Source of the DNA: an uncultured Candidatus Saccharibacteria bacterium
GTDB lineage: Bacteria > Patescibacteriota > Minisyncoccia > Phycocordibacterales > UBA2100
Assembly: GCA_964471165.1 (NCBI GenBank)
Contig: CAYYEX010000004.1
Span: forward strand, 22,378-86,377
Reading direction: 5' to 3'
DNA: 64,000 bases
A model generated the notes under the pieces. It ran no database searches. It worked only from the letters and a program-made list of their open reading frames with translations, and was not told the origin of the DNA. The translations under genes were made by a program, and so were the position numbers. Positions 2,899 through 37,384 of the stretch are shown one piece after another (the first letter of the stretch is position 1; every line of letters starts with the position of its first letter).

Positions 2899-2901
2899 TG
2901 T

Positions 2902-3765: not shown

Positions 3766-3768
3766 ATT

Positions 3769-4464: not shown

Positions 4465-4481
4465 ACGTTTACACTATCACA

Positions 4482-5534: not shown

Positions 5535-5571
5535 GAAAAAATCGTAGCATGGAAAGCATTGGGTAAACGTG

Positions 5572-6879: not shown

Positions 6880-6974
6880 AAATGCAGGTTATAGGGAGCA
6901 GGTGATAGGGATGAGTAAATGCGGGTGCAGAAGATTGAGTCTACTGTTCCCTACAACCTATAACCTATTCCCTT

Positions 6975-11981: not shown

Positions 11982-12698
11982 TTAGAGAATGACGTCGGCG
12001 TTCTTGCCGGTAGCAGACCAGCCGTCATGATTGTTGAACACCAGGTTTGTCCCCTCTTTCATCTTCATCACTTTCTCAATCAGTTTTTCCACGAGCGCCT
12101 TCGGGTCAGAATCAAACACGATATTGGTATTTGGGCGGTGTGCAGCATCAATAATGAGTTCCAAAAGTTCGTCGGTATCAGACGCACTACGAAGCACGCC
12201 TATCGGGCGGTGGTCTTCAAACGCGACGGCAAACTCATTGATGGTTCCAATACGGCCTGGGCCGATAATCATTGCATCGGACGAGCGCACAAACAACAAG
12301 TCGCGGCCGGAATAGCCGAAACCGGTGTACATAACCACGTCCATGTAGTCGAGCGGGAGCTGGTAGGTTTCCACGTGCTCACGCTCGGTGGCTGCTGGGG
12401 AAAATCCGATTGAAAACCCGCACTCATCTTTTGCCCCCATTGCCGCATAGAGTGGAAAGCCTGTTGTTGCTCCCGTGGTAATGATTGCGCCGTGTCGCGC
12501 AATCTCGCGACCGATTTCCTTTGCCTTCTCAAATGCATCGAGTCCGGCATACGTGGTGTCGGCCGCGCCAGAGACACCTATTTTCACAACACCATAACCG
12601 TCAGGAAGCCGACAGAAGTTCTGCGGTACTGCAGTGTGATTCGGATGGAGTAACTTCTTCATCATCGTCAAAATAGTATACCACTTCTGCGTATACAA
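11982..12698 (-). CDS. TIGR00725 / SLOG-LOG-like Rossmann-fold nucleotide-binding protein
   Basis: IGVSGAADTTYAGLD...AIITTGATTGFPLYAAMGAKD...MIIGPGRIGTINEF fits the LOG/TIGR00725 pattern. Confidence 0.55.
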   Translation of the reverse strand: MYTQKWYTILTMMKKLLHPNHTAVPQNFCRLPDGYGVVKIGVSGAADTTYAGLDAFEKAKEIGREIARHGAIITTGATTGFPLYAAMGAKDECGFSIGFSPAATEREHVETYQLPLDYMDVVMYTGFGYSGRDLLFVRSSDAMIIGPGRIGTINEFAVAFEDHRPIGVLRSASDTDELLELIIDAAHRPNTNIVFDSDPKALVEKLIEKVMKMKEGTNLVFNNHDGWSATGKNADVIL

Positions 12699-23801: not shown

Positions 23802-24941
23802 TTATGCAGCTTTCTTTTCTTCACCCTCCGGCAGCATCATGCGCGCCGTCTCGAGTGTCTCCTCATTCAGTTCCATTAGGCCCACCTTACGACCGTCCGG
23901 GAGTGTGACCGAGGCATTCTGCACAACCTCCAAGAAATTACCTCCCCACGTGTTGCCGTGAATCTTGCCGCCGATTTCCGATATCGCTTTTTTCGCCGTC
24001 GACTCAGATATCGGAAACTCCTGTCCCTTTATAGTTATTGTGACAGTGACCGGTGCGCGCTCTTTCTCCAATTCCGTGAGCTTAATCAGCTCGACTTTCG
24101 GGGAAATATGCATGTATCCGGCCTCATTGCGGTTGTAAATTGAATCGCCGTAGTTGTCGCTCTGACGGAAGAGAAATGGCGCCCGCACAATATCATCGCT
24201 ACCACGCATGAGCTCGGCGAATTCCGGGCTCACGACCGTATAGTTATATTCAGGCTTTTTGATGTATTCTAATCCCCCATCCTCTTCCTTGAAATGAATC
24301 TCTGAGCGCATCAAATACTCGGCGCCTTTCGCTTGCGCCTCCGCCACTGCAGCATCACGCGCCATGCCGGGTCGGCTGCGGTAAAAAGTCTTTTTGGTCT
24401 CGATGGGCGCCGCGCCAGGACCAAAACCGATTCTTGTTCCTGCAGGTACCAGCACCGCCGCAATTTCTGATTCAATTTGGCTTTGGATTGAGCGTTCCCT
24501 GCCGTTCTCACGAGACGCATAGAACGAGTACTCCGGTAACAAGTCCCCGCCATCAATCGCATCCTCAAGACGTTCGACATCTTTGATGAAAGTTTCGATT
24601 GGGCAGGGGGCCGCTTCTATCCCTTGCGCCGCGGCAACAACTTTCAACTTTTCCGTGTATTCATTGTATGCGGCTGCAATATATTCCGCTTCAGAAATAA
24701 TGTCCTCTCGAAATTTGCCGTATACCGCATCAAGATTCAGTGCGTTACTCTCGGCTGTCATCTGTCGCTCTGTCTGCCCACGGAACCCGATACGCTGGAT
24801 AAGCACCTTCTCTATGGCCTCTTTGTCAGCAGCGGCAGTTTCTAACTTTGACTCGGCCATTGCCGCCGTGAGGTCCTCCGAGGTTCTTTTGTTCTTAAAA
24901 GCATCAAATTTTTCCATATATGAGAACGGTAGCACACGCAA
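23802..24941 (-). CDS. hypothetical protein inserted between secY and gmk (the track start is TTG; an internal ATG at 24917 is also possible)
   Basis: ORF only; acidic, probably alpha-helical, no recognisable motif. Confidence 0.35.
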   Translation of the reverse strand: MRVLPFSYMEKFDAFKNKRTSEDLTAAMAESKLETAAADKEAIEKVLIQRIGFRGQTERQMTAESNALNLDAVYGKFREDIISEAEYIAAAYNEYTEKLKVVAAAQGIEAAPCPIETFIKDVERLEDAIDGGDLLPEYSFYASRENGRERSIQSQIESEIAAVLVPAGTRIGFGPGAAPIETKKTFYRSRPGMARDAAVAEAQAKGAEYLMRSEIHFKEEDGGLEYIKKPEYNYTVVSPEFAELMRGSDDIVRAPFLFRQSDNYGDSIYNRNEAGYMHISPKVELIKLTELEKERAPVTVTITIKGQEFPISESTAKKAISEIGGKIHGNTWGGNFLEVVQNASVTLPDGRKVGLMELNEETLETARMMLPEGEEKKAA

Positions 24942-24991: not shown

Positions 24992-26266
24992 CTAGTACTC
25001 TCTAATCGACGTTTGAGCGTCAATCTTTTTGACGAGATCAAGTACTACGGATACGGCGATGAGGAGCGCTGTACCGCCAATGGTAACTGCGGTGATGCCC
25101 GTGATTCCCTGGAGGATGATTGGAAGCACTGCGAGCGAGCCCAAGAAGAGTGCCCCCACGAGCGTAATGCGCGTGATGATGTTGCCGAGGTAATCCGCAG
25201 TGGTGTTGCCCGGACGAACGCCTGGGATGAACGCGCCGTTCTTCTGCAAGTTCTTCGCAATCTGGTGCGGTTCAAACGTGATTGCCGTATAGAAGTACGT
25301 GAACATAACAACGAAGAAGAAGTAGAGTCCGCCGTATACCCACTGATTCGCAAGACCGGTAACCACTGCGTGCGCGCCTGCTGCAATCCACGAAATGGAT
25401 ACTCGCTCGAGGAACGTAGCAATCATCTGCGGAAACAACAGGAACGAGAGTGCGAAGATTATCGGAATCACGCCCGCCTGGTTCACGCGAAGCGGCAAGT
25501 ATGTGGAGACACCGCCGAGCACCTTTGCGCCACGCACGCGTCGTGCGTAGGTAACCGGAATTGGTCGCTCTGCTTCGGTGATGTACACCACCCCAGCCAT
25601 GATGGCGATACCAGCGGCGATGAAGCCGAGGTACGCAGGGAGCTGTGATGGGTCAAAGGCAAAGAGCGTCTGAGCCACCGCGCTCGGTACCGATGAAACG
25701 ATACCCGCGAAGATGATGAGCGACACACCGTTACCTACCCCAAACTCAGAGATGAGTTCTCCAATCCACATGAGGAAGATTGAACCTGCTGCGATAACAA
25801 TTACGTTGGTGGCAAGTCCGATGGCGGAGAGCGCTGGAACAATGCCGTTCTGCTGCAACAGGAGTAGGAACGCGAATGCCTGGAGGAATGCGAGCGGGAT
25901 AGAGAGGTAGCGCGAGTACTGCGAGAAGCGCTGACGACCCGCATCTCCTTCTTCCTGATACATCTCCTTGAGGCGCGGCACGAGGATGGTCATCAGCTGC
26001 ATTACGATAGAGGCCGTGATGTACGGACCAACACCAAGCATGACGATGGAAAGGTTTGAAAATCCACCTCCCGAGAAGATGTTGAGGAGTCCGAAGAACT
26101 GATTGTTCGAAAGGAATGCCTCGAGCTGTATTGCATCGATACCTGGTACCGGAATAGCCGCCAAAAAGCGGAATACCACGAGTGCCCCGAGAACGAAGAG
26201 GATGCGGCTGCGCAACCCCTCGTCTTCGAACACAAGCTTTGTCTTTCGAAGGAAGGATTCAAACAT
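24992..26266 (-). CDS. secY: preprotein translocase subunit SecY
   Basis: 10-TM protein with a conserved SecY signature; it follows rplO. Confidence 0.95.
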   Translation of the reverse strand: MFESFLRKTKLVFEDEGLRSRILFVLGALVVFRFLAAIPVPGIDAIQLEAFLSNNQFFGLLNIFSGGGFSNLSIVMLGVGPYITASIVMQLMTILVPRLKEMYQEEGDAGRQRFSQYSRYLSIPLAFLQAFAFLLLLQQNGIVPALSAIGLATNVIVIAAGSIFLMWIGELISEFGVGNGVSLIIFAGIVSSVPSAVAQTLFAFDPSQLPAYLGFIAAGIAIMAGVVYITEAERPIPVTYARRVRGAKVLGGVSTYLPLRVNQAGVIPIIFALSFLLFPQMIATFLERVSISWIAAGAHAVVTGLANQWVYGGLYFFFVVMFTYFYTAITFEPHQIAKNLQKNGAFIPGVRPGNTTADYLGNIITRITLVGALFLGSLAVLPIILQGITGITAVTIGGTALLIAVSVVLDLVKKIDAQTSIREY

Positions 26267-26272
26267 ATTGCT

Positions 26273-26710
26273 TTATTTAGTTGCTACCGAGCCACCTGCT
26301 TTTTCAACTGTTGCTCGGGCAGGGCCCGTAACACGGACACCCTTGAACGAGTACTTCTTTGAGGTTTCGCCGGCAACGATGGTGATTGGCTGACTCTTTC
26401 GTGCGAGGTTCAAATCGAGAATCATCTGGCGTGTTACCTCTCCTGCTGCAAAGATTGCATCAATCTTGGTGAGCGAGATAGCGCGCGCACCCTGCCCAGG
26501 GATAACAGTTCGGCCTCGGTTTTTACCGTAGCCACGGCGCTTTGGAAGCTTCTTGATGATGTCGCGCATTTCTGGGCGCACCTTGTGGCCCGCACGTGCG
26601 GTCTGGCCCTTACCTCCTCGTCCTGACTGCTTACCGCGGGTAGAACCCTGACCGCGTCCGACGCGACGATATGGTCGCTTTCCTGTGCGTGTGAGTGTGT
26701 TGAGTTCCAT
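26273..26710 (-). CDS. rplO: 50S ribosomal protein L15
   Basis: MELNTLTRTGKRPYRRVGRGQGS... Confidence 0.95.
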   Translation of the reverse strand: MELNTLTRTGKRPYRRVGRGQGSTRGKQSGRGGKGQTARAGHKVRPEMRDIIKKLPKRRGYGKNRGRTVIPGQGARAISLTKIDAIFAAGEVTRQMILDLNLARKSQPITIVAGETSKKYSFKGVRVTGPARATVEKAGGSVATK

Positions 26711-26711
26711 A

Positions 26712-27317
26712 TTATTTCATTGAGACCGATGCGAGTGCCTGAAGCGCTGCGCGTGCGTTGTTGATTGGGTTCTTTGAGCGTGAGAGCAACTTTGCAGTTA
26801 CATCGGAAACACCTGCCATTTCGAGCACAGAGCGAACCGATGAACCAGCTACGAGACCGCGTCCCGGAGATGGTCGGATTTCAACAACCGATGCGCAGAA
26901 CTTTGCCTCGACGTTGTGCTTGATTGAGCGATTCTTGGTGAGGTTGAGCGTAATCATGTGACGCTTTGCGTGGCGTGTAGCCTTTTCGATTGCGAGCTGT
27001 GTGTCTGCAGCCTTGCCAACACCCACACCGACGCGACCCTTCTTGTCACCGATAACGATTGCGACAGAGAAATTGAAGCGACGACCGCCTGCCATAACAC
27101 GGGCAACACGACGGATGCCAATCATTTTCTGAGCGAACTCGGAGCGTTCACGTTCCGGGCGGTTTCCCCCACGGCGTGGACCACGAGCTCCTGGGCCACC
27201 ACGACGGTCACGGTTGTCGTTGCGACCACCGGTTCGAGCTGGGCGTTCAGCAACCGCTGCTGGAGCAGCCGCGTTTGTCTGAGTTGCCTCCGTGTTCTGT
27301 TGTGTTTCGTCAGCCAT
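26712..27317 (-). CDS. rpsE: 30S ribosomal protein S5 with an R/G-rich N-terminal extension
   Basis: IGIRRVARVMAGGRRFNFSVAIVIGDKKGRVGVGVGKA. It directly abuts rplO, with no rpmD between them. Confidence 0.95.
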   Translation of the reverse strand: MADETQQNTEATQTNAAAPAAVAERPARTGGRNDNRDRRGGPGARGPRRGGNRPERERSEFAQKMIGIRRVARVMAGGRRFNFSVAIVIGDKKGRVGVGVGKAADTQLAIEKATRHAKRHMITLNLTKNRSIKHNVEAKFCASVVEIRPSPGRGLVAGSSVRSVLEMAGVSDVTAKLLSRSKNPINNARAALQALASVSMK

Positions 27318-27326
27318 AATAATTGT

Positions 27327-27671
27327 TTAAAATTCTAATCCTGCACCTCGTGCTGCATCTGCAAAAGCTTTGATAGTACCGACATACTGGAAGCCGCCGC
27401 GGTCAAATACAACTGCCTTGATTCCCTTTGCAACAGCTGCCTTGGCAATCGTTGCCGCTGCCTGTTCCGCACGTTCCTTTGGAGTCTTACCCTTTTCATC
27501 AGCCGAAGATACAGCTGCGAGCGTAACACCCTTGGTGTCGTCGATGATTTGTGCGGTAAGGCGCGTGTTCGACTTGTAAATCGAAAGACGCGGTCGTGAT
27601 TCCGTTCCAGAAACACCTGCGCGTACGCGTCGGTGTCGTCGTTCTCGTTGTTCTCGTTTTGTGAGTGCCAT
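27327..27671 (-). CDS. rplR: 50S ribosomal protein L18
   Basis: [25 protein letters not shown]...[21 protein letters not shown]. Confidence 0.95.
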
Positions 27672-27682
27672 ATATAGATTTA

Positions 27683-28219
27683 TTAGCCAGCAACCTTCTT
27701 ACCCTGCTTCTGGCGTACAACTTCACCCTCGTATCGAATGCCCTTGCCCTTGTATGGCTCTGGCTTCTTGATTGCGCGGACGGTTGCTGCGAACTCGCCT
27801 ACAACTTCTTTGTCTGCGCCTGATACTGAGATGATGTTCTTTTCTACTACAACGGTAAGTCCCTGCGGAATTGCCTTGATTACCGGGTGCGAAAAGCCAA
27901 GCGCCATTTTGAGATTGGTTCCCTGCATTTCTGCCTTGTAACCAATACCTTCGAGCTGCAATTTTTTGATGAACGGTGTGTTGACGCCGGAAATCATGTT
28001 GCGAACGTGCGCAGCATAGGTTCCCCACAATGCCTTTGCGAGGCGTGAGTTGTTGGCAGGATTAACCGTAACGTTCTGACCGTCGACTTTGATTTCGATT
28101 GCAGGGTGCACCATTTTCTTGAGGGTGCCGCCCTTACCTTTTACAATCAATTCCATCGAAACAACCGAGACTTCGGTGCCTGCGGGGATGATTATTTCTT
28201 TTTTACCTACTCGTGACAT
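27683..28219 (-). CDS. rplF: 50S ribosomal protein L6
   Basis: [19 protein letters not shown]... Confidence 0.95.
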
Positions 28220-28232
28220 ATATCAATTGAAA

Positions 28233-28628
28233 TTACCAAATCTCGAACAGAGCTTCGCCGCCGATTTTCTCTTTGCGCGCTTCTTTGTCGGTCTTGATTC
28301 CCTGTGGAGTTGAGAGGATGAGTGCACCGTGTCCGTAACGAACGCGAACGATTTCTCCTGCGCGCTTGTACATGCGGCGTCCTGGCTTGGAAATGCGCTT
28401 AACACCCTGGATGATGTGCTTGCCTTCGGAATCGTACTTGAGGGTAACGTCGAGGGTCTTCTTGACCTTCTTGCCCTTCTTTTCGATTGCTGCGATGAAA
28501 CCAGCCTCCTTGAGCTTCTCAGCGATTGCTGCCTTGAAGTTCGAGTATGGCAAAGAAACAACAGCGTGCTTAACAGCACCGGCGTTGGTGAGTCGTGTGA
28601 TGAAATCTGCTACAGGATCGGTGACCAT
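28233..28628 (-). CDS. rpsH: 30S ribosomal protein S8
   Basis: MVTDPVADFITRLTNAG from the ATG at 28628. The longer 28796 ORF is an upstream extension overlapping rpsN. Confidence 0.9.
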   Translation of the reverse strand: MVTDPVADFITRLTNAGAVKHAVVSLPYSNFKAAIAEKLKEAGFIAAIEKKGKKVKKTLDVTLKYDSEGKHIIQGVKRISKPGRRMYKRAGEIVRVRYGHGALILSTPQGIKTDKEARKEKIGGEALFEIW

Positions 28629-28629
28629 A

Positions 28630-28815
28630 TTACCAAGATGACTTCTTAACGCCTGGGATATTACCTTCGAGGGCCTCTTCACGGAAGCAGATGCGGCAGA
28701 GGTTGAAATCACGCATAAAACCGCGTGGGCGACCACACTTGAAACAGCGGCGTACCGTGCGCGAAGAGAACTTCGGAACGCGGTTTGCCTTAACAATCAT
28801 TGATTTCTTTGCCAT
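28630..28815 (-). CDS. rpsZ: 30S ribosomal protein S14 type Z (zinc-binding)
   Basis: 61 aa with [20 protein letters not shown]. Confidence 0.9.
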
Positions 28816-28988
28816 GTAGTTTGTTTAGCCCGCTAAGTGCGGGATGCTCGTGAAGGAAAGCTTGGGAGGCCTGCACCCTGCCTTTCGGCCTGGGTTATGG
28901 ACACTCCGCGGCGTAGGTCCTAGATTCTTGCGATATCCCTGGAACCCAGGAATCAGGCCAAAAAACGGACCTCCTGCGAGGCCTGAGA

Positions 28989-29017
28989 AATATACTCGAA
29001 AGGTACCGTGAAGTCAA
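28989..29017 (-). promoter_or_regulatory. Candidate sigma70-like promoter (TTGACT-17-TATATT) driving rpsZ-rpsH-rplF... downstream of the island insertion
   Basis: Minus-strand reading: TTGACTtcacggtacctttcgagTATATT. The ~170-nt leader to the rpsZ ATG contains several GC hairpins. Confidence 0.4.
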
Positions 29018-29038
29018 ACAATCGCTCCCGCCAGGCCA

Positions 29039-29602
29039 TTGACGCGACTCTGGAAGCACTGCATTGTGCTTGCAGTCAGGCGAGCGATGGAGATTGCAAT
29101 GTCGAACGGCACAAAGACGAAGTACCCCATTACGCGACGCGTTGCGTACACCGGTCTGCGCCCGAAGAGTGGCGGATACGTCAACCTAATTGTCGCGCTC
29201 ACGCGACGGGAGCAGGGCGACGATTCCGGCGAAGCGGACAAAAGGCCGCTTCTCGAGATCTTCTTCGAGGTCGGCTCAAAGGATTCGGATCCGGTTCGCG
29301 TATCGACCGATACCGTCCTCGAGTGGAGTGAATTGCCGCCCGTGCATCGCTTCCCCCTACGGTGGCGAAACATTCGCAAGTACATCGACCAAGGTATTAT
29401 GCCGGACGATGCGTATCTGCAGTCTGCCGTTGAGTTCCTCGTAACTTCAGGGACCTGGCGATTCAGTGCAAATCACAATGGTGACAGCGACGAGGTTGAG
29501 TTCACTGTGATCCGCCTCACCCCGCAGGTCGCCGTTACAGGCAAGGAATTGCTCTCGAAGCTGCCTGAATCCGCCGTCGAAATGGTCGATGAGGAGGAGT
29601 AA
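29039..29602 (+). CDS. hypothetical protein (start uncertain), convergent with the ribosomal protein genes
   Basis: ORF followed by a strong terminator hairpin; no motifs. Confidence 0.4.
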   Translation: MTRLWKHCIVLAVRRAMEIAMSNGTKTKYPITRRVAYTGLRPKSGGYVNLIVALTRREQGDDSGEADKRPLLEIFFEVGSKDSDPVRVSTDTVLEWSELPPVHRFPLRWRNIRKYIDQGIMPDDAYLQSAVEFLVTSGTWRFSANHNGDSDEVEFTVIRLTPQVAVTGKELLSKLPESAVEMVDEEE

Positions 29603-29619
29603 TCACCCTCATCGGGGCA

Positions 29620-29650
29620 CATCTTGCAACCGCGCGGACATCCGCGCGGC
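29620..29650 (+). terminator. Rho-independent terminator (CCGCGCGG-ACAT-CCGCGCGG then CTTTTGTTT)
   Basis: Self-complementary 8-bp GC stem plus a T-tract, 18 nt after the stop of 29039..29602. Confidence 0.5.
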
Positions 29651-29692
29651 TTTTGTTTACGCAGCATTTCTAAAAGAATAGGAAGATGGAAA

Positions 29693-29714
29693 ATATACCG
29701 ATATATCGGTATAT
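29693..29714 (-). terminator. Perfect palindrome ATACCGATAT|ATATCGGTAT followed by a T-rich run on the minus strand (terminator for the methyltransferase gene, or an operator)
   Basis: 10/10 inverted repeat, 35 nt downstream of the 29749 stop. Confidence 0.4.
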
Positions 29715-29748
29715 GTACGGTCTTGCTCAACATTTCCAACACTTGACC

Positions 29749-30531
29749 CTAGCTGAGTTTTTGCAGGTACATCGAGAAGGTGCGTCGTTTCCAGGCGCGT
29801 TCTTCCCCTATTTTGCCGCGGTTGATGTGCTTGTGAGATTTTACGACTTTGTGAATCTGGAAATACGGAGCAAAGAACTCTTTGGCGTCGTCTTCGGTCC
29901 ACACGTGTTCGTGTACGCCGATTTTCGGGTGTATGTATGCGCCGGGCTCGTCCGATGGATTTTCCTTGAGCAGGCGCTTGCTGTGCAAATCCTCGTCGGC
30001 AAGGAATGATTTGAAAAACAACCAGCCGTCGGGGCGCAGCACCCGCACGATTTCTTCGAGCAGCTTCTCGCGCTCTTCTTTGTGCAAGAAGTGCGAGGTC
30101 ATCATGTCGAGCGCGAGCGTTACCGAGCCGTCTTTTGCTGGGAGCGGGTCAGACATAGATTGCACCGAGAACTTAATCGGCAGGTCTTCTTTGTTGCGGT
30201 CGGCTTCCAAAATGGCCACTTCGGAGATATCAAAACCCTCTCCATGCATCCCGAAGTTGTTTGAAAGGTAGATGATATTGCGGCCGTTGCCGGTACCAAT
30301 GTCGAGCACTTTTGCGACCGGATTGAGGTACTTGCGGCCATGCTCGCGTTCAAGCCAGGTAATAAACTTTTCCAAGTCTTCGGACACATTCATAGAAAGC
30401 GCGAGGTGTTCGCTCGATTTGTACTCCTTGTTCCAGAAATCCTTGTGCTTTCCACCCCCCTGCTGCAGGCGAGTGGTCTGGCTTGGTTTTATCTTTTTTA
30501 CTTTTCTTCCCATATATTCAGATAGTAGCAA
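29749..30531 (-). CDS. class I SAM-dependent methyltransferase inserted between rplE and rpsZ
   Basis: VLDIGTGNGRN (motif I)...VLRPDGWLFF (post-II). Confidence 0.7.
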   Translation of the reverse strand: MLLSEYMGRKVKKIKPSQTTRLQQGGGKHKDFWNKEYKSSEHLALSMNVSEDLEKFITWLEREHGRKYLNPVAKVLDIGTGNGRNIIYLSNNFGMHGEGFDISEVAILEADRNKEDLPIKFSVQSMSDPLPAKDGSVTLALDMMTSHFLHKEEREKLLEEIVRVLRPDGWLFFKSFLADEDLHSKRLLKENPSDEPGAYIHPKIGVHEHVWTEDDAKEFFAPYFQIHKVVKSHKHINRGKIGEERAWKRRTFSMYLQKLS

Positions 30532-30567
30532 ACGAGCGCCTTTCGGCGCTCGTTTGTTTGCTTTTGT

Positions 30568-31098
30568 TTATTTCTGCAATGGCACTCCCAAATGTCGCAA
30601 GAACGCTTCTGCCTCTTTCTTGTTCTTGGCAGTGGTCGTAACTGTAACTGCAAGACCGAACACATCCTTTGCGTCTTCGTCGGAAGTTTCCGGGAAAACC
30701 GTGTGTTCCTTGAGACCGATGGTGATGTTGCCCATCTCGTCGATGGCGCTCACCTTGATACCACGGAAGTCTTTTACACGAGGGAGAACGATGTTCACAA
30801 GCTTGTCGAAAAACGACACCATGCGTGCGCCGCGAAGTGTTACCTGGAAACCAGAGAGGTCGCCGACACGTGTCTTGAAGTTCGCAATCGACTTCTTTGT
30901 GTTGCGCTTTACCGGAGCCTGGCCCGTGATTGTGGTGAGGCGGTCAAGAATAACTTCGAGCTTCTTCTTGTCTTTGATAGAACCAACACCAGTCGAGACG
31001 ATAAGCTTCTCGAGCTTTGGCGTCTGCATGATGTTCTTGTAGCCGAACTCACCCTTGAGGGCTGCGTGAGTATTTTTCTGAATAGTGTGTGCGTCCAT
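30568..31098 (-). CDS. rplE: 50S ribosomal protein L5
   Basis: YKNIMQTPKLEKLIVSTGVG... Confidence 0.95.
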   Translation of the reverse strand: MDAHTIQKNTHAALKGEFGYKNIMQTPKLEKLIVSTGVGSIKDKKKLEVILDRLTTITGQAPVKRNTKKSIANFKTRVGDLSGFQVTLRGARMVSFFDKLVNIVLPRVKDFRGIKVSAIDEMGNITIGLKEHTVFPETSDEDAKDVFGLAVTVTTTAKNKKEAEAFLRHLGVPLQK

Positions 31099-31102
31099 AT
31101 AT

Positions 31103-31414
31103 TTATTTGATGGCCTGGCCGCTCTTTACTGCGATTCGGCTGCGAACTCCCTTTTCGTCTCGCTTGATAGAAATACGAGATGGCTTGCCGGTCTTCGAGT
31201 CCACAATCATCACGTTTGATACGTGAATCGGCATCGGCTTGTCGATAATCTGGCCCGAGCGTGCCTGCTGTGTTGGCTTGCGGTGGCGCTTGCCCATGTT
31301 GACCCCGTCGATAATTACCTTATCGATTTTGGTGAACACCTGGGAAATCGCTCCGCTCTGACCCTTGGCCTTGCCGGCGATTACCATTACTTTGTCTCCT
31401 TTCTTGAGTTTCAT
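31103..31414 (-). CDS. rplX: 50S ribosomal protein L24
   Basis: MKLKKGDKVMVIAGKAKGQSG (KOW) from the ATG at 31414. The longer track ORF is an upstream extension. Confidence 0.9.
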   Translation of the reverse strand: MKLKKGDKVMVIAGKAKGQSGAISQVFTKIDKVIIDGVNMGKRHRKPTQQARSGQIIDKPMPIHVSNVMIVDSKTGKPSRISIKRDEKGVRSRIAVKSGQAIK

Positions 31415-31418
31415 ACAA

Positions 31419-31790
31419 TTACAGGATTTCTGGCGCGAGTGAGCCGATTTTCTGGTAGCCTCGTTCAATCACTTCGCGTGGGATTGGTCCGAATACGCGG
31501 TTTGCCTTTGGCTCCTTCTTGTCCTTTTCCACGAGCACAACTGCGTTTTCGTCGAAACGGATATACGAACCATCCTTGCGGCGGAATGCCTTCTTCTGGC
31601 GCACAACAACAGCGCGGTGAACGTCCTTCTTCTTTACAGCCTTACGAGGCTGTGCGCTCTGGATAGAAAGCACGACTTCGTCCCCGATTTCGGCATAGCG
31701 CTTCTTTGAGCCGCCGAGAATCTTGAACACACGTCCGATTTGTCCACCGGAGTTGTCTGCAATTTTTACGAGTGATCGGTCCTGCAACAT
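31419..31790 (-). CDS. rplN: 50S ribosomal protein L14
   Basis: MLQDRSLVKIADNSGGQ... Confidence 0.95.
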   Translation of the reverse strand: MLQDRSLVKIADNSGGQIGRVFKILGGSKKRYAEIGDEVVLSIQSAQPRKAVKKKDVHRAVVVRQKKAFRRKDGSYIRFDENAVVLVEKDKKEPKANRVFGPIPREVIERGYQKIGSLAPEIL

Positions 31791-31795
31791 ATAGC

Positions 31796-32053
31796 TTATT
31801 TAGTTTCGCCAGCACTTACGATGATGAAGCGCTTGAGCTTAGAAATCGGTCGAGTCTCCTTGATGGTTACCTTTGCACCCACCTCTACGGTGTTGCCTGG
31901 GTTGTGCACGAGGAACTTCTTGGAAAGGCGCATGTACTTCTTGTACTTCGGGTGCTTCACGTAGCGTTCAACCTGCACGGTTACCGTGTCTTTCATCGCC
32001 GCCTTTACGACAACGCCATCAAATGTCTTTCCTGTTGTGATTTTTGTTTCCAT
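31796..32053 (-). CDS. rpsQ: 30S ribosomal protein S17
   Basis: GKTFDGVVVKAAMKDTVTVQVERYVKHPKYKKY. Confidence 0.95.
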   Translation of the reverse strand: METKITTGKTFDGVVVKAAMKDTVTVQVERYVKHPKYKKYMRLSKKFLVHNPGNTVEVGAKVTIKETRPISKLKRFIIVSAGETK

Positions 32054-32057
32054 ACGC

Positions 32058-32258
32058 TTATTTGGTTTCGGTCTGGGCTACCTTACGTGAATTCATCTCT
32101 GTGAGCAACCGTGCGATTTCTTTTCGAAGTCCGCGGCCTTCGCGCACATTGCGTGTGCGAGTTCCAGCTTCACCGAAGCGGAACGTGCGAAGTGCCTCGC
32201 GCTTTGCTGCGATTTCCTTCTGCAAGTCTTCTATGCTCCATGATTTAAGTTCTGCCAT
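32058..32258 (-). CDS. rpmC: 50S ribosomal protein L29
   Basis: 66 aa; MAELKSWSIEDLQKEIAAKREAL. Confidence 0.9.
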   Translation of the reverse strand: MAELKSWSIEDLQKEIAAKREALRTFRFGEAGTRTRNVREGRGLRKEIARLLTEMNSRKVAQTETK

Positions 32259-32275
32259 ATATCTTTCCTATATTT

Positions 32276-32701
32276 TTACTGGGCTCGTGCAACGATTCGT
32301 ACCTTGAGCGGAAGTTTTGTGCCTGCCTTGCGGAGTGCCTCACGTGCCATTGCCTCTGGTGCACCATCGATTTCAAAAAGCACACGTCCCGGACGAACGT
32401 CGAACACGTATCCTGCCAAATCACCCTTACCAGAACCCATGCGTACTTCTGCTGGCTTCTTGGTGAATGGTCGGTCAGGGAAAATGCGAACCCAAATCTT
32501 GGCACTCTTGCCTGCTGCGCGCGAAAGTGCGCGGCGGGCTGCCTCAATCTGATTGCTCGTTACGCGGTGCTGGCTCATCGCCTTCAAACCGAATGAACCG
32601 AATGCCACGGTGATGCCGCGGGTATCCGGAGCAACACGACGGTCGCCTCGTCGGCGCGCGTTTTGCCACTTTCGGTGTTTAACTTTTTTAGGTGCCAACA
32701 T
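32276..32701 (-). CDS. rplP: 50S ribosomal protein L16
   Basis: MLAPKKVKHRKWQNARRRGDRR... Confidence 0.95.
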   Translation of the reverse strand: MLAPKKVKHRKWQNARRRGDRRVAPDTRGITVAFGSFGLKAMSQHRVTSNQIEAARRALSRAAGKSAKIWVRIFPDRPFTKKPAEVRMGSGKGDLAGYVFDVRPGRVLFEIDGAPEAMAREALRKAGTKLPLKVRIVARAQ

Positions 32702-32707
32702 ACAAAT

Positions 32708-33382
32708 TTATTGATCCTTCTTGTCGAAGATGTCGCCGCGGTAAATCCATACCTTGACCCCGATGACGCCGTATGGGAGATATGCCTTTTCCTTCGCAAA
32801 GTCGATGTCTGCGCGCAATGTCTGCAACGGTACACGACCGCGCTTAATTTCCTCTGAACGAGACATTTCTGCTCCCCCCAAGCGGCCAGAGATACCGATG
32901 CGCACACCCTGTACGTCGCGGTTTGCCATTACCTTTTCTACCGTCTGCTTGAGCACGCGGCGGAACGTCTGGCGCTTCTCCAAGCCCTCGGCAACCATGT
33001 ATGCAACAACCGGTGCCTGTGACTCTGGTGAGCGAACTTCCTCGATGTCGATACGTACGAGCGACTTGCCCTTTGGTGCACCCTTTACGGTTCCAACAAC
33101 TTTTTCGACTTCTTTGACGAGCTTCTGGCTCCCCTCTCCTCCACGACCGATAACGAGACCCGGGCGAGATGTCTTGATGAGAATGCGGATGGTGTTCTGT
33201 GCGCGTTCGATTTCAACAGACGTTACGAACATGCCGCGAAGACGCTTCGTGAGGAAGCGGCGGATGGTCGTGTCAATCATCACGTTGGTGCGGTATTCGA
33301 GCGGCGACTTAGCAAACCAGCGCGACTTCCAGTCACGAATGATGCCGAGGCGATGTGCGTATGGATGTACTGTGTGTGTCAT
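32708..33382 (-). CDS. rpsC: 30S ribosomal protein S3
   Basis: MTHTVHPYAHRLGIIRDWKSRWFA...KH domain. Confidence 0.95.
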   Translation of the reverse strand: MTHTVHPYAHRLGIIRDWKSRWFAKSPLEYRTNVMIDTTIRRFLTKRLRGMFVTSVEIERAQNTIRILIKTSRPGLVIGRGGEGSQKLVKEVEKVVGTVKGAPKGKSLVRIDIEEVRSPESQAPVVAYMVAEGLEKRQTFRRVLKQTVEKVMANRDVQGVRIGISGRLGGAEMSRSEEIKRGRVPLQTLRADIDFAKEKAYLPYGVIGVKVWIYRGDIFDKKDQ

Positions 33383-33388
33383 AAAAAA

Positions 33389-33844
33389 TTATTCGCTCTT
33401 TGCTGCTGCTTTCTTTGCTACCTTCTTTGCTGCACTCTTCTTTGCTGCCTTCGGCTTTTCCTCACCAGTTACTTCAGCAACCTTTTTTGCCTTCTTCGCA
33501 GGTACAGCAGGCGCTGCATTGTGTGAACCAAGCTCGAGGGTGACGATAGAAAAGGTCTTTGCGTAGCGTGCTGCGCGACCACGTGCCTTTGGCATAAAGC
33601 GGCGCATTACCTGACCCTTATTGACTGCGATTGCCTTCACAAAAAGACTCTCAACCTCCTGACCGTTGTTCTGTACTGCGTTTGAAACGGCAGAGTTGAG
33701 GAGCTTCAACATAGTTGGTGAAGACTTCTTTGGGAGATATGCGAGCGCCTGACGAGCTGCATCAATAGACTTACCGCGAATCAAGTCCGCAACGAGGCGC
33801 ACTTTGCGCGGTGATTGATTGTAGTTTTTAAGAAGCGCTTTCAT
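33389..33844 (-). CDS. rplV: 50S ribosomal protein L22 with a K/A-rich C-terminal extension
   Basis: MKALLKNYNQSPRKVRLVADLIRGK... Confidence 0.95.
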   Translation of the reverse strand: MKALLKNYNQSPRKVRLVADLIRGKSIDAARQALAYLPKKSSPTMLKLLNSAVSNAVQNNGQEVESLFVKAIAVNKGQVMRRFMPKARGRAARYAKTFSIVTLELGSHNAAPAVPAKKAKKVAEVTGEEKPKAAKKSAAKKVAKKAAAKSE

Positions 33845-33853
33845 ACGAGAGTT

Positions 33854-34192
33854 TTATTTCTTTGCTGCACCTGTTGCGGCCTTTGCAGCCTGTGCAGTAG
33901 CGATTTCCTGCTGTTTAGCAGCCTGTTCTGCCTCCTTCTGCATCTTGCCTCCGTGTCGTACGAATCGGGTCGTCGGAGCAAATTCACCGAGCTTGTGGCC
34001 AACCATGTCTTCGGAAACGAATACGGAATCGAAGTTCTTCCCCGTGTGCACCAAGAAGGTATAGCCCACAAATTCAGGAGCAATGGAGCTTGCGCGCGCC
34101 CACGTCTTAATACCACCGTCATTCGGCTTGCGAGCAGACACCTTTTTGAGGAGTTTCTCGTCTACGTATGGGCCCTTTTTTGCGCTTCGCAT
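33854..34192 (-). CDS. rpsS: 30S ribosomal protein S19 with an A/K/Q-rich C-terminal extension
   Basis: [18 protein letters not shown]...[13 protein letters not shown]. Confidence 0.95.
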
Positions 34193-34234
34193 ATACTTTT
34201 TATTTGGTCAATTGAAAACCCGCGTCTTGCGGGA

Positions 34235-34271
34235 GTCCGTGCAATTTATACGAAGTACTCTCTAATGTCAA
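34235..34271 (-). promoter_or_regulatory. Candidate promoter for rpsS and downstream genes (TTGACA-15/16-TATAAAT), created by or retained at the island junction
   Basis: Minus-strand reading: cagTTGACAttagagagtacttcgTATAAAttg. A small hairpin CCCGC-GTCTT-GCGGG lies in the leader at 34209-34224. Confidence 0.45.
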
Positions 34272-34290
34272 CTGTTTTCGGCCTAAAACG

Positions 34291-34327
34291 GAGGTCCTGT
34301 TGCAGAGTTATATATTTGTGGTATAAT
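34291..34327 (+). promoter_or_regulatory. Candidate divergent promoter (TTGCAG-16-TGgTATAAT, extended -10) for the island genes
   Basis: TTGCAGagttatatatttgtggTATAAT about 30 nt upstream of the ATG at 34358. Confidence 0.45.
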
Positions 34328-34357
34328 GGAACCCGTTTAACCCCAACGAGGCACCCC

Positions 34358-34780
34358 ATGCGCATCGGTATTCTAGGGCTTTTTCTGGTCCTTTTAGGTC
34401 TCTCGCCAGTTCAGGCGCAGCAGGCCTATATGCACAACGGCAGCACGATGACGGTCACCGTATCGGGCAAGTCCGTCGAAATCAGCTACCTCTCCCCTCG
34501 GGCCGGTTTGCCTGTTCAATCAGGCACCCGCTTGTTCGAGGGAGGAGTCAACGAATACAGCCGCAAAATCGAAGGCACGGCGTGGATTTTCCACAGCCGA
34601 TGCAACCGGGCCTACTCGTACTGGGTGGTCGGCGACTTCGAAAACGGCGACGCACAGCTCCACCTGGTAGGTGCAGCACCGGTCGTAGACCCGCGCACCT
34701 GTCTCGTCGTCGGACACTCGCGGGAAAGCGCGAATGCGCATCTCTTGTTCCACAACGACTGCGAAACCATCGTCGAATAA
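34358..34780 (+). CDS. small secreted protein (signal peptide), hypothetical
   Basis: MRIGILGLFLVLLGLSPVQAQQ signal peptide, supported by the promoter upstream. The 33815 track start is an antisense extension over rpsS. Confidence 0.5.
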   Translation: MRIGILGLFLVLLGLSPVQAQQAYMHNGSTMTVTVSGKSVEISYLSPRAGLPVQSGTRLFEGGVNEYSRKIEGTAWIFHSRCNRAYSYWVVGDFENGDAQLHLVGAAPVVDPRTCLVVGHSRESANAHLLFHNDCETIVE

Positions 34781-34954
34781 TCGATGCAGGGGTTCGCTCA
34801 GAAACTCAAAAGCCTCGGTACGTCCCGGGGTTTTTTGTTTTAAACAAATGCCCGGCACGAGTGCCGAGGGCTTTTGTTCATTGCTTCTGTCTTTTTTGCG
34901 TCCTCGTGTTAGATTCACGAATAGCTGATGGCAGCTTGTGAGGGAGACGAAACA

Positions 34955-35305
34955 ATGCCGAGCTCTGCTTTGGATGTGGCACTTCTGAACGCCGACGGAC
35001 TCACGGCACGAATCCACCGTTACGTTCTGTTCTGCGTGAAGGACGGCAACGGAAGTGTTCGGTACATCGTACGTACCGCACCGCGCGAAGAGCCCTGTGG
35101 CGCGATTATTCAGCGCCTTGGTGACGAGATTCCCTGCATGGACATTACGCCGCTTGGCGGCGGCGAGTTCTCCTACCGCCCACATGATTGCAATATCATT
35201 CTGTTCGGCGGGACAAGCCCCGACATTGAGCGCGAGGACGACCGGGCCGCATCCGCCGCCATTTTCCAGCGCGCGCTCGGATTCCACACCTGCACCCTGC
35301 CGTAA
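34955..35305 (+). CDS. hypothetical protein (116 aa)
   Basis: GAGGGAG 9 nt upstream of the ATG at 34955; followed by a terminator hairpin. Confidence 0.4.
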   Translation: MPSSALDVALLNADGLTARIHRYVLFCVKDGNGSVRYIVRTAPREEPCGAIIQRLGDEIPCMDITPLGGGEFSYRPHDCNIILFGGTSPDIEREDDRAASAAIFQRALGFHTCTLP

Positions 35306-35337
35306 CCTGCTCCCCTCGCACTCGCGAGCGCACGAAC

Positions 35338-35372
35338 ATGAAGACCCGCTTGCACGGGTCTTCACGCTTTTA
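35338..35372 (+). terminator. Rho-independent terminator (GAAGACCCG-CTTGCA-CGGGTCTTC then ACGCTTTT)
   Basis: Perfect 9-bp stem followed by a T-tract. Confidence 0.5.
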
Positions 35373-35489
35373 TGAATTGTACCTGCCGCTTCCGGTACGT
35401 ACCGGGACTTGTGGCGTCCCTGGAATGATGGTGCTATGGTCTCGTAAGGGGAAATATAGAGAAACGGGGCTACAGAAAGGGTCCGAACC

Positions 35490-36533
35490 ATGCGTTTCAA
35501 TCACGCAGCATCATTTTTCGCCGCGGTCCTGGGTGCACAACTCTACAGCCGCAAAGCGAACAAGCGCCTCTCGGACAAGCTCTCGCTTGAGTTAGACCGA
35601 CGTCAGGCGCGCGACGAACTGCCACCGCGCGAGGTGGACCTCCAGCTCTTGCACAACAAGTTCATGCGGTTCAGGCCGCGACTCATCGGTGCAGTGGGAG
35701 CGTACTGCCTCCTGAGCGGACAACATCATCCAGATGTCGTTCAAAACGGGGGGTTGGATTTGTTCCGCACCATGTGGTACCTCGGTGCAACACAGGACGA
35801 CCTTATCGACGAAATTCCCTCGCAAAACGGCATCGAGCGCAGGCACGTCGAGCTCAGAATCCGCGACGCGATGTTTGGTACGGACCGTACCATCTATCGC
35901 GCGGCGTTGCGCGTGTTCTCGGACGACCTGTCACGGAGTGACTTCCCGCCCGAAGCCCAGCAGTATCTGCGACGCAAAGTGCGTGACTGGTACCGGTTCC
36001 TCGTCGAGCAGGAGGCAAAGGTACTCACGATGCACTCGTCGGAACTCGGTTACTGGGAGTGTCGCCGATACCGCGAGGAGCAGAACATGCGCGTGGCGAA
36101 ATTGCTCACCGCATGCCTCAATGGCCGGCGTTGTCACGAACCGGAGATGCAGGTGCTCGAGACGCTGGTACCTATGCTCTCGTTCCGGACGCAAATCATC
36201 GACGACGTCGCCGACGTCTTCGAAGACCTCGCAATGGGTCGCCCGAGTTTTTGCATGGGCGCACTCAACGACAATCCGCACGAACTGCACAACGTTCGGG
36301 AGTTCGCACGAAAGAATCCGCGCGTGAAGAAGATGCAGGTGCAGCTTTTTCGAAAGCTCGCACCAAAAAGTGCATCCCTCATCGAGTCGACCTACGACCA
36401 GTACGGCGCGGATCTGCGGACACGCAGCGAACCGTTTGTGCTGCTCGCGACAGTCGGCGACATGTTGTACCGCTGGTTCCCGACGTTTCGAGATGCCATC
36501 TACCGTCTCCAGCCGCGTTGGGCAAACTTCTAG
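35490..36533 (+). CDS. isoprenoid synthase-fold protein, squalene/phytoene synthase-like
   Basis: Two Asp-rich motifs about 130 aa apart: YLGATQDDLIDE and IIDDVADVFEDLAMGRPSF. Compare CrtB/SQS DDxxD and DV.ED...GR.Y.P. GC-rich gene. Confidence 0.5.
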   Translation: MRFNHAASFFAAVLGAQLYSRKANKRLSDKLSLELDRRQARDELPPREVDLQLLHNKFMRFRPRLIGAVGAYCLLSGQHHPDVVQNGGLDLFRTMWYLGATQDDLIDEIPSQNGIERRHVELRIRDAMFGTDRTIYRAALRVFSDDLSRSDFPPEAQQYLRRKVRDWYRFLVEQEAKVLTMHSSELGYWECRRYREEQNMRVAKLLTACLNGRRCHEPEMQVLETLVPMLSFRTQIIDDVADVFEDLAMGRPSFCMGALNDNPHELHNVREFARKNPRVKKMQVQLFRKLAPKSASLIESTYDQYGADLRTRSEPFVLLATVGDMLYRWFPTFRDAIYRLQPRWANF

Positions 36534-37324
36534 CCTCGCAGAAATGCGAGTATGGGGGCAAGGAACGCTGACGGCTGCTCTATGTGCACAAGATGACCCG
36601 CATCCGGTATGACAACGAGTGTCGAGCCGGCAATGCGCAACTGAATACGCGACCCGATACTCACTGCAGTAATCGGGTCGCTTTTTCCATATATGAGTAG
36701 TGTTTTTGCCTTCACTCTCGAGAAAATGGTGTCATCGCCTTTCTGGTGCGTGCGCATGTATACGGCCAGCATTCGCTTTCCGTGTTCACGTTCGACTCGT
36801 GCGTTATCGGCAAACTCCCGCGGGGTGAGAAATGTTTTATGCATATAGAAAAGAAATCCTGGCATAAGCCTGCCTACCGTGTGAATGATTGCCGTATTGA
36901 GTTTTCGAAACCAACCGACTCGATTCCAGTCACCCATTGATACAAGAAGAAGTTTTGGAGCGCCAAATGTAGCAGCATACGAGAGCGCCACGCGCGCACC
37001 AAACGAGTGTCCGAGTACCGCGTAGGGAGACAGCGAGAGCGCTTCACAAAACGAATGTACGAACTGCGCGTATTCTTCAATCGACCAGGCACTCGGCGGT
37101 GCTTCGCTCATCCCGAAGCCTGGCATATCAAGCGCATATACCGTGTATTCTTGCGCAAGATTGGATATCACCCCGCGCCATGTCACTGCACTCTGTGCCC
37201 ACCCATGCACGAGGATGAGCGCCGGACCTGTGCCAACAGAAAGGTACCTGGTAGTGAGTCCCCCTATGACGACTGTTCGGTATGAAGGGGTCTCTTGCAT
37301 GTATATCAAAATATGATGCCTCAA
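36530..37324 (-). CDS. alpha/beta-fold hydrolase
   Basis: ILVHGWAQS...AVLGHSFGARVAL (GxSxG nucleophile elbow)...PDAGHLVHIEQP. Confidence 0.75.
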   Translation of the reverse strand: MRHHILIYMQETPSYRTVVIGGLTTRYLSVGTGPALILVHGWAQSAVTWRGVISNLAQEYTVYALDMPGFGMSEAPPSAWSIEEYAQFVHSFCEALSLSPYAVLGHSFGARVALSYAATFGAPKLLLVSMGDWNRVGWFRKLNTAIIHTVGRLMPGFLFYMHKTFLTPREFADNARVEREHGKRMLAVYMRTHQKGDDTIFSRVKAKTLLIYGKSDPITAVSIGSRIQLRIAGSTLVVIPDAGHLVHIEQPSAFLAPILAFLRG

Positions 37325-37340
37325 GGACTTTATGTCGAGG

Positions 37341-37378
37341 CCAAAAAGAACGGTCCGCCTGTGGCGGACCGTTCTTTT
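37341..37378 (-). terminator. Strong bidirectional terminator immediately downstream of rplB (AAGAACGGTCCGCC-TGT-GGCGGACCGTTCTT flanked by A5/T5)
   Basis: 14-bp perfect stem, 7 nt after the rplB stop. It separates rplB from rpsS, which are normally co-transcribed. Confidence 0.6.
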
Positions 37379-37384
37379 TGTTGA

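Follow-up and report, generated by a model that had tools for sequence, protein, structure and literature searches.

An ancestral break in the ribosomal protein gene cluster of a Patescibacteria clade carries a conserved promoter and a structured leader RNA with a possible S8 site

In a 64,000-nucleotide (nt) stretch of DNA from an uncultured Candidatus Saccharibacteria bacterium (contig CAYYEX010000004.1 of assembly GCA_964471165.1, positions 22,378 to 86,377; hereafter the window), the ribosomal protein genes rplE and rpsZ lie 1752 base pairs (bp) apart. The corresponding distance is 14 bp in E. coli, where rplE is followed by rpsN, and 1-100 bp in other phyla. Here, we trace the rplE–rpsZ junction through related genomes, describe the promoter and the structured 5' leader RNA that precede rpsZ, and weigh whether this leader may serve as a feedback operator for ribosomal protein S8. 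Window genes are on the minus strand unless stated otherwise, and the junction holds the following features, in order from rplE to rpsH:

30568-31098, minus strand: rplE, encoding L5 (Pfam Ribosomal_L5 and L5_C); closes the upstream transcription unit, with rplX before it
30527-30558, minus strand: hairpin after the rplE stop codon, AGCAAACGAGCGCC-GAAA-GGCGCUCGUUUGCU, with a 12-14-bp stem (terminator scan; arms 12/12 complementary)
29749-30516, minus strand: class I S-adenosylmethionine-dependent methyltransferase of 255 amino acids (aa) (Pfam, above gathering cut-offs)
29690-29714, minus strand: perfect 22-bp palindrome ATATACCGATATATCGGTATAT (29714-29693) followed by UUU (direct sequence reading)
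29630-29659, plus strand: GC hairpin CCGCGCGG-ACAT-CCGCGCGG (29630-29649) followed by CTTTTGTTTA (terminator scan, canonical)
29087-29602, plus strand: orphan open reading frame (ORF) of 171 aa counted from the first ATG, with an alternative start at 29039 (ORF map)
28989-29017, minus strand: sigma-70-type promoter TTGACT-17-TATATT (-35 box 29017-29012; -10 box 28994-28989), matching the consensus at 10 of 12 positions
28846-28985, minus strand: conserved structured 5' leader of rpsZ, ~135 nt, made up of P1, the P2 arm, P3/P4 and a C/U-rich tail (covariance model)
28630-28815, minus strand: rpsZ, encoding a zinc-type S14 with CxxC...CxxC (Pfam Ribosomal_S14)
28233-28628, minus strand: rpsH, encoding S8, the candidate feedback regulator (Pfam Ribosomal_S8, E=1e-39)

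The ORF map and the neighbouring genes place rpsZ at the head of a downstream unit, rpsZ-rpsH-rplF-rplR-rpsE-rplO-secY. An earlier reading of the window from its sequence alone had described a methyltransferase, an opposite-strand ORF, hairpins, a promoter and a GC-rich leader between rplE and rpsZ, and we found each of these where it had been placed. Some details required revision: the palindrome is perfect but spans 22 bp rather than 20; both terminator hairpins are present, but a third lies directly after rplE; and the hypothetical gene is convergent with the methyltransferase as described, while also being divergent from rpsZ. Direct reading of the start regions of rplE, the methyltransferase, rpsZ and rpsH revealed A/U-rich stretches and no recognisable Shine-Dalgarno sequence. 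Several rpsZ leaders have an (A)ACCAU box in common, 8-12 nt ahead of the AUG.

We collected relatives by searching with L5, keeping one genome per species, and with S8 against metagenome contigs, and mapped ribosomal genes on the resulting loci. These relatives are labelled Kaiserbacteria, Paceibacterota or Parcubacteria, and the leader is found in a clade of Kaiserbacteria-like Paceibacteria; the L5 encoded in the window is 92-60% identical to theirs. Among the 47 loci that carry both genes together with the leader, the rplE–rpsZ gap ranges from 190 to 8064 bp, and it exceeds 8 kilobases (kb) in two further loci (L003 and L007). Five loci are free of cargo, with gaps of 190-230 bp (L014, L133, L031, L131 and L135), and these retain the promoter and the leader. 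In three contigs rplE is missing upstream of the leader altogether, over the 4.5 kb examined in one (L083) and ~9.5 kb in the others (L081 and L084).

Because promoter and leader are present in cargo-free loci and in loci that lack rplE, the break appears ancestral to the clade, with the cargo later and variable. We are highly confident of this operon break with its ancestral promoter and leader. Comparison of the loci indicates that the gap is an old, tolerated break which collects accessory genes, and that its cargo is ordinary. A methyltransferase homologue occupies the gap in 18 of the 47 loci, with copies 53-81% identical in the same slot; it adjoins rplE in two loci (L161 and L166), overlapping it by 4 nt in L166, and is located elsewhere in L163. 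The methyltransferase is a clade-wide gene found habitually behind rplE. From one lineage to another, the ORFs that separate the methyltransferase from the leader show no relationship.

The sequence-only reading had proposed instead that a recent insertion split the two genes, that a newly arisen promoter restarts transcription behind it, and that the S8 operator moved from rplE to the leader. Gap content does vary even between species with 91-92% L5 identity, and includes a PaaX/Cas2-like gene, a GNAT acetyltransferase and various genes of unknown function, as a recent insertion would predict; the orphan ORF is likewise strain-specific and its region mildly GC-richer (0.55-0.58), and part of the cargo is probably recent for these last two reasons. 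However, conservation of the promoter and leader both where the gap is cargo-free and where rpsZ is not beside rplE contradicts a new insertion and a new promoter, and the age of the methyltransferase in its slot, evident from its diverged copies and its overlap with rplE, speaks against them as well. Moreover, the E. coli-type operator at rplE is limited to Gammaproteobacteria (PMC3616713), leaving nothing to move. We consider a recent insertion of this kind very improbable. That reading had also named conservation of the insertion across the phylum as the outcome that would count against it; what we observe is a weaker form of that outcome, as the break, often with the methyltransferase, is kept across a clade of family or order level and not across the phylum.

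Other arrangements at the junction were seen among relatives. In the closest ones, a PaaX/Cas2-like gene of 193 aa and a GNAT (RimI-like) acetyltransferase gene flank the methyltransferase (L001, 10961-11542 and 12401-12943; L002, 11022-11603 and 12718-13344), the former on the strand opposite to the methyltransferase and the latter on the same strand; the window has neither gene. In one metagenome contig (L081, Ga0105164_10001169, positions 2378-7422; S8 82% identical), 23S and 5S ribosomal RNA (rRNA) genes precede the rpsZ leader by ~2 kb. Between these rRNAs and the leader stand two protein genes, one of them FtsW/RodA-like by sequence reading alone, and rplE is absent over 9.5 kb. In this contig the Rfam match to 23S stops at 5985 and a sarcin-ricin-loop-like motif occurs at 6983, which suggests that the 23S gene is interrupted by a large insertion or an intron.

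The promoter upstream of rpsZ is one of just two 10/12 consensus matches in positions 26000-36000 of the window, and its -10 box ends 174 nt before the rpsZ ATG. All 62 distinct leader sequences follow the form TTGAC(T/A)-N16-18-(TCGCG)TAnnnT, and the leader's first conserved G comes 5-8 nt after the end of the -10 box. The promoter noticed in the window is therefore real in an evolutionary sense, since every distinct sequence retains it at a fixed spacing from the leader.

We aligned the 260 nt upstream of rpsZ across the clade and built a first covariance model from 15 sequences, which identified 65 loci with one copy each at 47-120 bits; a second model that includes P2 recovered the same 65. 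Matches to the window leader score 99-115 bits (E ~1e-24). The leader lies on the same strand as rpsZ and ends ~5-65 nt before the AUG, with the sole exception of L009, in which the distance is ~450 nt. The insert between leader and AUG in that locus (12020-12472) is flanked by the inverted repeats ACCCAGCACCTTGTTTGTTTATG and CATAAACAAACAAGGTGCTGGGT, encodes a small GIY-YIG-nuclease-like ORF (judged from its translation by eye), and resembles a small mobile element that landed inside the 5' untranslated region (UTR).

The second model proved specific in a control of 1.06 Mb that included spc regions of other phyla, which yielded no further match at E<=0.01, the single weak one being L045 (15.6 bits, E=0.097). 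None of the 4227 families of Rfam 15 matched anywhere in the window at gathering score, and at E<=10 positions 28600-30700 gave two chance matches (E 4-7), neither on the leader. Known RNA genes (signal recognition particle RNA, 6S RNA, transfer-messenger RNA and RNase P RNA) were also considered for the leader region and set aside, with Rfam blank there at both gathering score and E<=10 and ARAGORN blank as well. Full-text literature searching that paired 'ribosomal protein leader' with 'Patescibacteria' returned no paper, and rpsN, rpsH, uS8 and uS14 are unmentioned among the 20 candidate leaders of Eckert and Weinberg 2020 (PMC7247131). The leader is apparently undescribed and common to a whole clade of the ultra-small Patescibacteria. 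It displays what generically marks a ribosomal-protein leader, a conserved same-strand RNA between promoter and start codon, and it is probably a cis-regulatory RNA.

Within the leader and just downstream of it we delineate the following elements:

28969-28982, minus strand: P1, a 5'-terminal hairpin, GCCUC-GCAG-GAGGU, flagged as terminator-like and followed by a U-run at 28965-28960
28915-28972, minus strand: P2 arm, in which AGGUCC pairs with GGACCU and the U-run with AAGAA, with a variable apex
28931-28955, minus strand: S8-site-like module within P2, U595 G596 A597 U598, hairpin, A640 U641 A642 U643 C644 G645 (architecture search; A640=28936, U641=28935, A642=28934)
28865-28907, minus strand: P3/P4 hairpin, capped by GAAA (a GNRA loop), with C..UAAC / UGCA.G as its invariant internal loop (invariant columns)
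28829-28843, minus strand: small hairpin CCCGC-ACUUA-GCGGG between the leader and the AUG, present here in the window, L001, L002, L085 and L092 and missing from most others

That the leader is structured, as the sequence-only reading had supposed, was borne out by comparative covariation and not by single-sequence folding, since the fold of the window leader on its own is not unusual (z = -1.07) and its minimum-energy form (-53.5 kcal/mol) differs from the comparative fold (-37 kcal/mol). Across the 65 aligned sequences, standard pairs account for 89.7% of cells, and both partners change in a compensatory manner in 21 of 28 pairs; covariation scored 0.42, compared with 0.22 in shuffles (reached in 0/500) and at most 0.148 with partners slid by 1-3 columns, all figures from an alignment that was itself fitted to the covariance model. 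An alignment-free test of the lower P2 duplex gave -9.8 kcal/mol for own partners and -6.7 kcal/mol for cross partners (permutation p<0.0005), with compensatory examples such as GGUCC/GGACC, GGCCUUG/CAGGGUC, GGUCCUG/CAGGAUC and GGCUUUG/CGAAGCC. Compensatory changes affect 8 of the 10 pairs in P2 helices 2-3 and 13 of the 14 pairs in helices 4-6 of P3/P4. Across the clade, the middle of P2 is a U-run paired with a conserved GAAGAA box, and a CACG linker follows the variable apex. P3/P4 is found in all 65 leaders and is more conserved than any other part of them; a CUCCU-like tail comes after it. A closing helix P0, formed by the 5' G-run and the conserved CUCCU tail to give a three-way junction, was tried and dropped: both strands are conserved in sequence, and own and cross duplex energies are alike (p=0.59).

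P1 behaves differently from the other helices, as its clade form, GCCUC-GYAG-GGGGC, is conserved in sequence without covariation. The 3' arm of P1 shares nucleotides with the 5' strand of lower P2, and the two alternatives are nearly equal in folding energy in the window (-35.4 kcal/mol for the P1 form, -37.2 kcal/mol for the full-P2 form); a switch between P1 and full P2 is conceivable. These features bear on the proposal that no protein regulation takes place, and that the leader is a riboswitch for a small ligand or ion, or a stability, processing or insulator element in which P1 would block 5'-end-dependent decay and P1 with the U-run would also stop read-through from the cargo. P1 plus the U-run does score as terminator-like, the same promoter-hairpin-U-run design precedes rpsS in the window and its relatives, and it recurs before rpsZ in lineages with short leaders (L019-L025), with a hairpin that covaries from one lineage to the next. 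The apparent lack of Shine-Dalgarno sites by direct reading would likewise allow the U-rich tract to be a ribosome landing site. However, a stabiliser or terminator needs P1 alone, so that a further 110 nt with invariant loops and covarying helices would go unexplained; no Rfam riboswitch matches even at E<=10, and a variable apical arm would be unusual for a ligand pocket. We regard a purely non-protein role as distinctly unlikely.

The short leaders themselves occur in more distant Paceibacteria (L019, L020, L021, L024 and L025), in which a TTGAC promoter is followed by a small hairpin that covaries between lineages, a U-run and then directly the rpsZ AUG. The 5' hairpin and U-run are suggestive of an ancestral core onto which the long leader was built.

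The apex of P2 takes four forms (types A-D), which differ in their likeness to the S8 site in helix 21 of 16S rRNA. The E. coli helix 21 core consists of A595, A596-U644, G597-C643, U598, A640, N641 and A642 (UUAAGUCAG/CUGAUACUGG). Type D leaders and L008 carry 5' GCAAGUCC ... GGA(A/U)ACUGC 3', equivalent to this core, with flanking helices that covary; the exact core AAGU/ANACU is present in ten leaders. Type A, the commonest form and that of the window, reads CUGAU ... GAUAUCG, and the (U/C)GAU/AUAUC class comprises 21 leaders. Here the geometry is preserved and U598, A640, U641 and A642 are kept, while the pairs are swapped to G596-C644 and A597-U643, position 595 is U or C, and flanking pairs again covary. 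In total, 32 of 65 leaders showed a helix-21-like S8 architecture, whereas shuffled arms averaged 0.68 such cases and never exceeded 4 (a ~47-fold excess over the mean).

A swapped-pair module of this kind may still serve as an S8 site. A642 is the only conserved base-specific S8 contact (PMC4176348), and the module remains conceivable because isosteric replacements of the 597/643/641 triple still bind S8 and the T. thermophilus S8 site naturally has G595-(C596-G644) (PMC4176348). In addition, other gap-bearing Paceibacteria lineages have non-homologous rpsZ leaders with a canonical S8-like hairpin 21-46 nt before the AUG (L017 and L018 with the exact core, and loosely L026), while the same comparison found no S8-like hairpin before rpsZ in loci of other phyla.

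Several observations weigh against S8 recognition. The universally conserved parts of the leader (P1, lower P2 and the P3/P4 loop) are not the S8-like part, and the module is compressed into a loop in type C (~9 leaders) and missing from type B (~12 leaders). In the window module, position 595 and both Watson-Crick pairs differ from the canonical core, which is that of E. coli 16S helix 21 and may not equal the clade's own helix 21. The module lies ~115 nt from the AUG, and simple occlusion of the start site is therefore impossible. Finally, a loose S8-core pattern is common by chance, with 97 matches in 4 Mb; a plain regular expression for the core was discarded on that ground in favour of the shuffle-controlled architecture test, and the S8 argument therefore rests on position and architecture and not on the motif alone.

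The suggestion that the leader may carry the S8 site is thus upheld in part: an S8-like loop exists at 28955-28931, but as a covariant variant, and about a dozen (~12) leaders are without the module. S8 is the leading candidate effector and feedback by it is plausible, although as an identification of the effector this is a possibility that we place somewhat short of an even chance.

The leader could alternatively be an operator for one or more other proteins of the operon (L6, L18, S5, L15 or S14) that bind the P3/P4 loop, with the S8-like loop optional or coincidental. The conservation of P3/P4 in every leader, its invariant loop nucleotides and its strong stem covariation fit such a role, as does the swapping of the P2 apex among four types, one without the S8-like loop. 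Yet the P3/P4 loop has no convincing likeness to rRNA: a model search of an E. coli rrn operon gave only 3-4 bits, and neither the 5S (by eye) nor the 23S (by a scan for P3/P4-like patterns) of L081 produced a match. The excess of S8-like modules over shuffled arms, and their independent recurrence in other lineages, also argue against coincidence. We judge this alternative unlikely.

Two further cases of rRNA mimicry were examined. Resemblance of P3/P4 to 16S helix 15 was rejected, as it amounts to a 3.6-bit match only, and UGCA is paired in helix 15 and in a loop here. The 5' motif of the leader, GCCUCG(Y)AGG(R)GG (28982-28969, GCCUCGUAGGGGG), bears a striking resemblance to the 5' strand of helix 22 (E. 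coli 16S 657-671, GUCUCGUAGAGGGGGG), and the P4 hairpin GCCGNAAGGC (28888-28880) resembles E. coli helix 23a, GGCGAAGGC (reference for both, L169 (rrsH) 727-742 and 793-801). S15, S6 and S18 bind this helix 22/helix 23a region. Such mimicry would need P0, which has no covariation support, and the S15, S6 and S18 genes are not in the operon.

In this clade the cut in the S10-spc cluster between rplE and rpsZ is permanent: rplE closes its own unit with a terminator hairpin, and rpsZ opens a separate one at the conserved sigma-70-type promoter, the DNA between them being a tolerated slot for accessory genes, with each cargo gene of the window apparently having its own terminator. Returning to an S8-type feedback operator, we propose that the leader acts in cis on rpsZ-rpsH-rplF-rplR-rpsE-rplO-secY: S8, the product of the second gene and the most likely effector, would bind the P2 internal loop that copies the architecture of the 16S helix 21 site, and with S8 in excess the P2-containing fold would be stabilised and the unit expressed less. 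This could work through translation of rpsZ with coupled downstream genes, through the stability of the messenger RNA (mRNA), or through a choice of P1 over lower P2 or the reverse. Taken as a whole, the break, the separate rpsZ unit and the leader as an S8-type operator form the account that we lean towards.

The E. coli spc operon reportedly contains an S8 operator, an S8-interacting RNA at the rplE start, as described by Cerretti in 1988 and Merianos in 2004. The present leader would resemble it in having a helix with an asymmetric internal loop that copies the helix 21 S8 site, in lying in the mRNA of the S8-encoding operon, in combining a variable distal stem with a conserved core, and presumably in its logic, in which excess S8 represses its own operon. 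Unlike the E. coli operator, which overlaps the rplE start, the module (28955-28931) is located in the rpsZ 5' UTR ~115 nt upstream of the AUG, with rplE in a separate terminated unit 1.75 kb upstream; it sits inside a much larger three-domain leader with other invariant elements; and in the window its core Watson-Crick pairs are swapped and A595 is replaced by U. The two occur in different groups, are not homologous by sequence, and are linked by no Rfam or other model. Because the E. coli operator is confined to Gammaproteobacteria (PMC3616713), any S8 operator in these Patescibacteria would be an independent invention.

Like the ribosomal-protein leaders for L1, L10, L20, S15 and S6:S18 (rpsF), the rpsZ leader is a covariation-supported 5' UTR RNA with a sub-motif resembling a protein site in rRNA. 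In contrast to these and to the candidates of PMC7247131, none of which precedes rpsZ/rpsN or rpsH, it stands before rpsZ. Its hairpin and U-run after a ribosomal-protein promoter, which could stop transcription early, recall the L4/NusA-dependent attenuator of the E. coli S10 leader. Unlike in that attenuator, the hairpin begins at ~+1 to +3, so no upstream alternative structure can compete before the U-run is made, and the U-run is paired with GAAGAA in the comparative fold; an attenuation role for P1 and the U-run is pure inference.

The cargo of the window consists of two genes. The methyltransferase matches Methyltransf_25 (E=2e-16, 60.8 bits, cut-off 27) and Methyltransf_11 (E=5e-15, 56.4 bits, cut-off 21.2), and its family has at least 1250 homologues. 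It reaches no NCBIfam equivalog at cut-off, the best score being 46 bits against 155. The orphan ORF matches nothing in Pfam or NCBIfam, has just one homologue, near-identical, among 5.8 billion proteins, and found no tblastn match in related loci. Opposite-strand ORFs in the same slot of relatives are unrelated to it and to one another in homology comparisons between lineages, and its AlphaFold model is unusable (predicted local distance difference test score 50.6). These searches indicate that the orphan ORF is strain-specific cargo. Mobile-element signatures were absent from the gap, with no tRNA, no flanking repeats, and no transposase, integrase or other mobility gene among its two ORFs.

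The three hairpins differ in their tails. In cargo-bearing relatives, rplE is usually followed by a canonical terminator with a GC hairpin and U-run, in the same place as the window hairpin, the minus-strand tail of which is only a weak UUUGCU. The window hairpin is probably leaky because this U-tract is weak, and such leakiness would let the methyltransferase be read. We assign the 22-bp palindrome to the methyltransferase, as its likely intrinsic terminator, because UUU comes next on the minus strand; the GC hairpin is assigned to the orphan ORF as its intrinsic terminator, its T-tail being on the plus strand.

A second break in the ribosomal protein cluster lies upstream of the rplE–rpsZ junction, with these features:

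34193-37384, genes on both strands: rplB–rpsS junction, the second operon break
36530-37324, minus strand: alpha/beta hydrolase gene in the rplB–rpsS gap
35490-36533, plus strand: ORF of 347 aa and unknown function in the rplB–rpsS gap
34271-34243, minus strand: rpsS promoter TTGACA-17-TAAATT, followed by the hairpin CCCGCAAGACGCGGG and UUUUCAAUUG (hairpin at 34233-34219)

Many relatives retain the rpsS promoter and hairpin, at gaps of 32 bp and 6 kb alike, and a box, CTGCAACA(C/G)GACCTC..ATTTT, recurs ~45 nt upstream of this promoter. At the other end of the rpsZ unit, secY is followed by a 379-aa ORF (23802-24941, minus strand) with no Pfam match, and then, down to 15046, by gmk, adk, map, purD, a TraG/VirD4-like ORF of 934 aa and ndk. 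The usual continuation, infA-rpmJ-rpsM-rpsK-rpsD-rpoA, is absent after secY here.

Apart from E. coli and a few Firmicutes, feedback RNAs for ribosomal proteins have hardly been worked out, and the phylogenetic range of most is narrow. We know of none in the Candidate Phyla Radiation, whose members cannot be grown alone and have reduced ribosomes. With its conserved promoter and leader, rpsZ stands out across a Patescibacteria clade as the first gene of an autonomous ribosomal-protein operon. In its fullest form, in which the leader would be a clade-wide regulatory RNA and the first S8 operator outside Gammaproteobacteria, built as a modular scaffold with P3/P4 serving a second partner and belonging to a cluster re-armed at its cuts, our interpretation is tentative and somewhat doubtful. 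If it is correct, the arm that binds protein has been exchanged repeatedly, appearing as a canonical S8 site, a covariant one, a mini-loop or none at all, and the cluster has been cut at fixed points, rplB–rpsS and rplE–rpsZ, each equipped with a promoter and a 5' hairpin. At these cuts, accessory genes would have stable landing pads within a gene cluster more conserved than any other known.

Because rplE and the methyltransferase gene are tightly linked, and in some genomes the stop codon of one overlaps the start codon of the other, the enzyme is a candidate ribosome-modifying methyltransferase. Gene-order annotation and the extraction of phylogenomic markers should not presume an unbroken S10-spc cluster in this clade. 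The leader types would offer a natural experiment on the gain, variation and loss of rRNA mimics, and 65 leaders with a recognisable S8-like module may make the balancing of ribosome synthesis in these organisms concretely testable.

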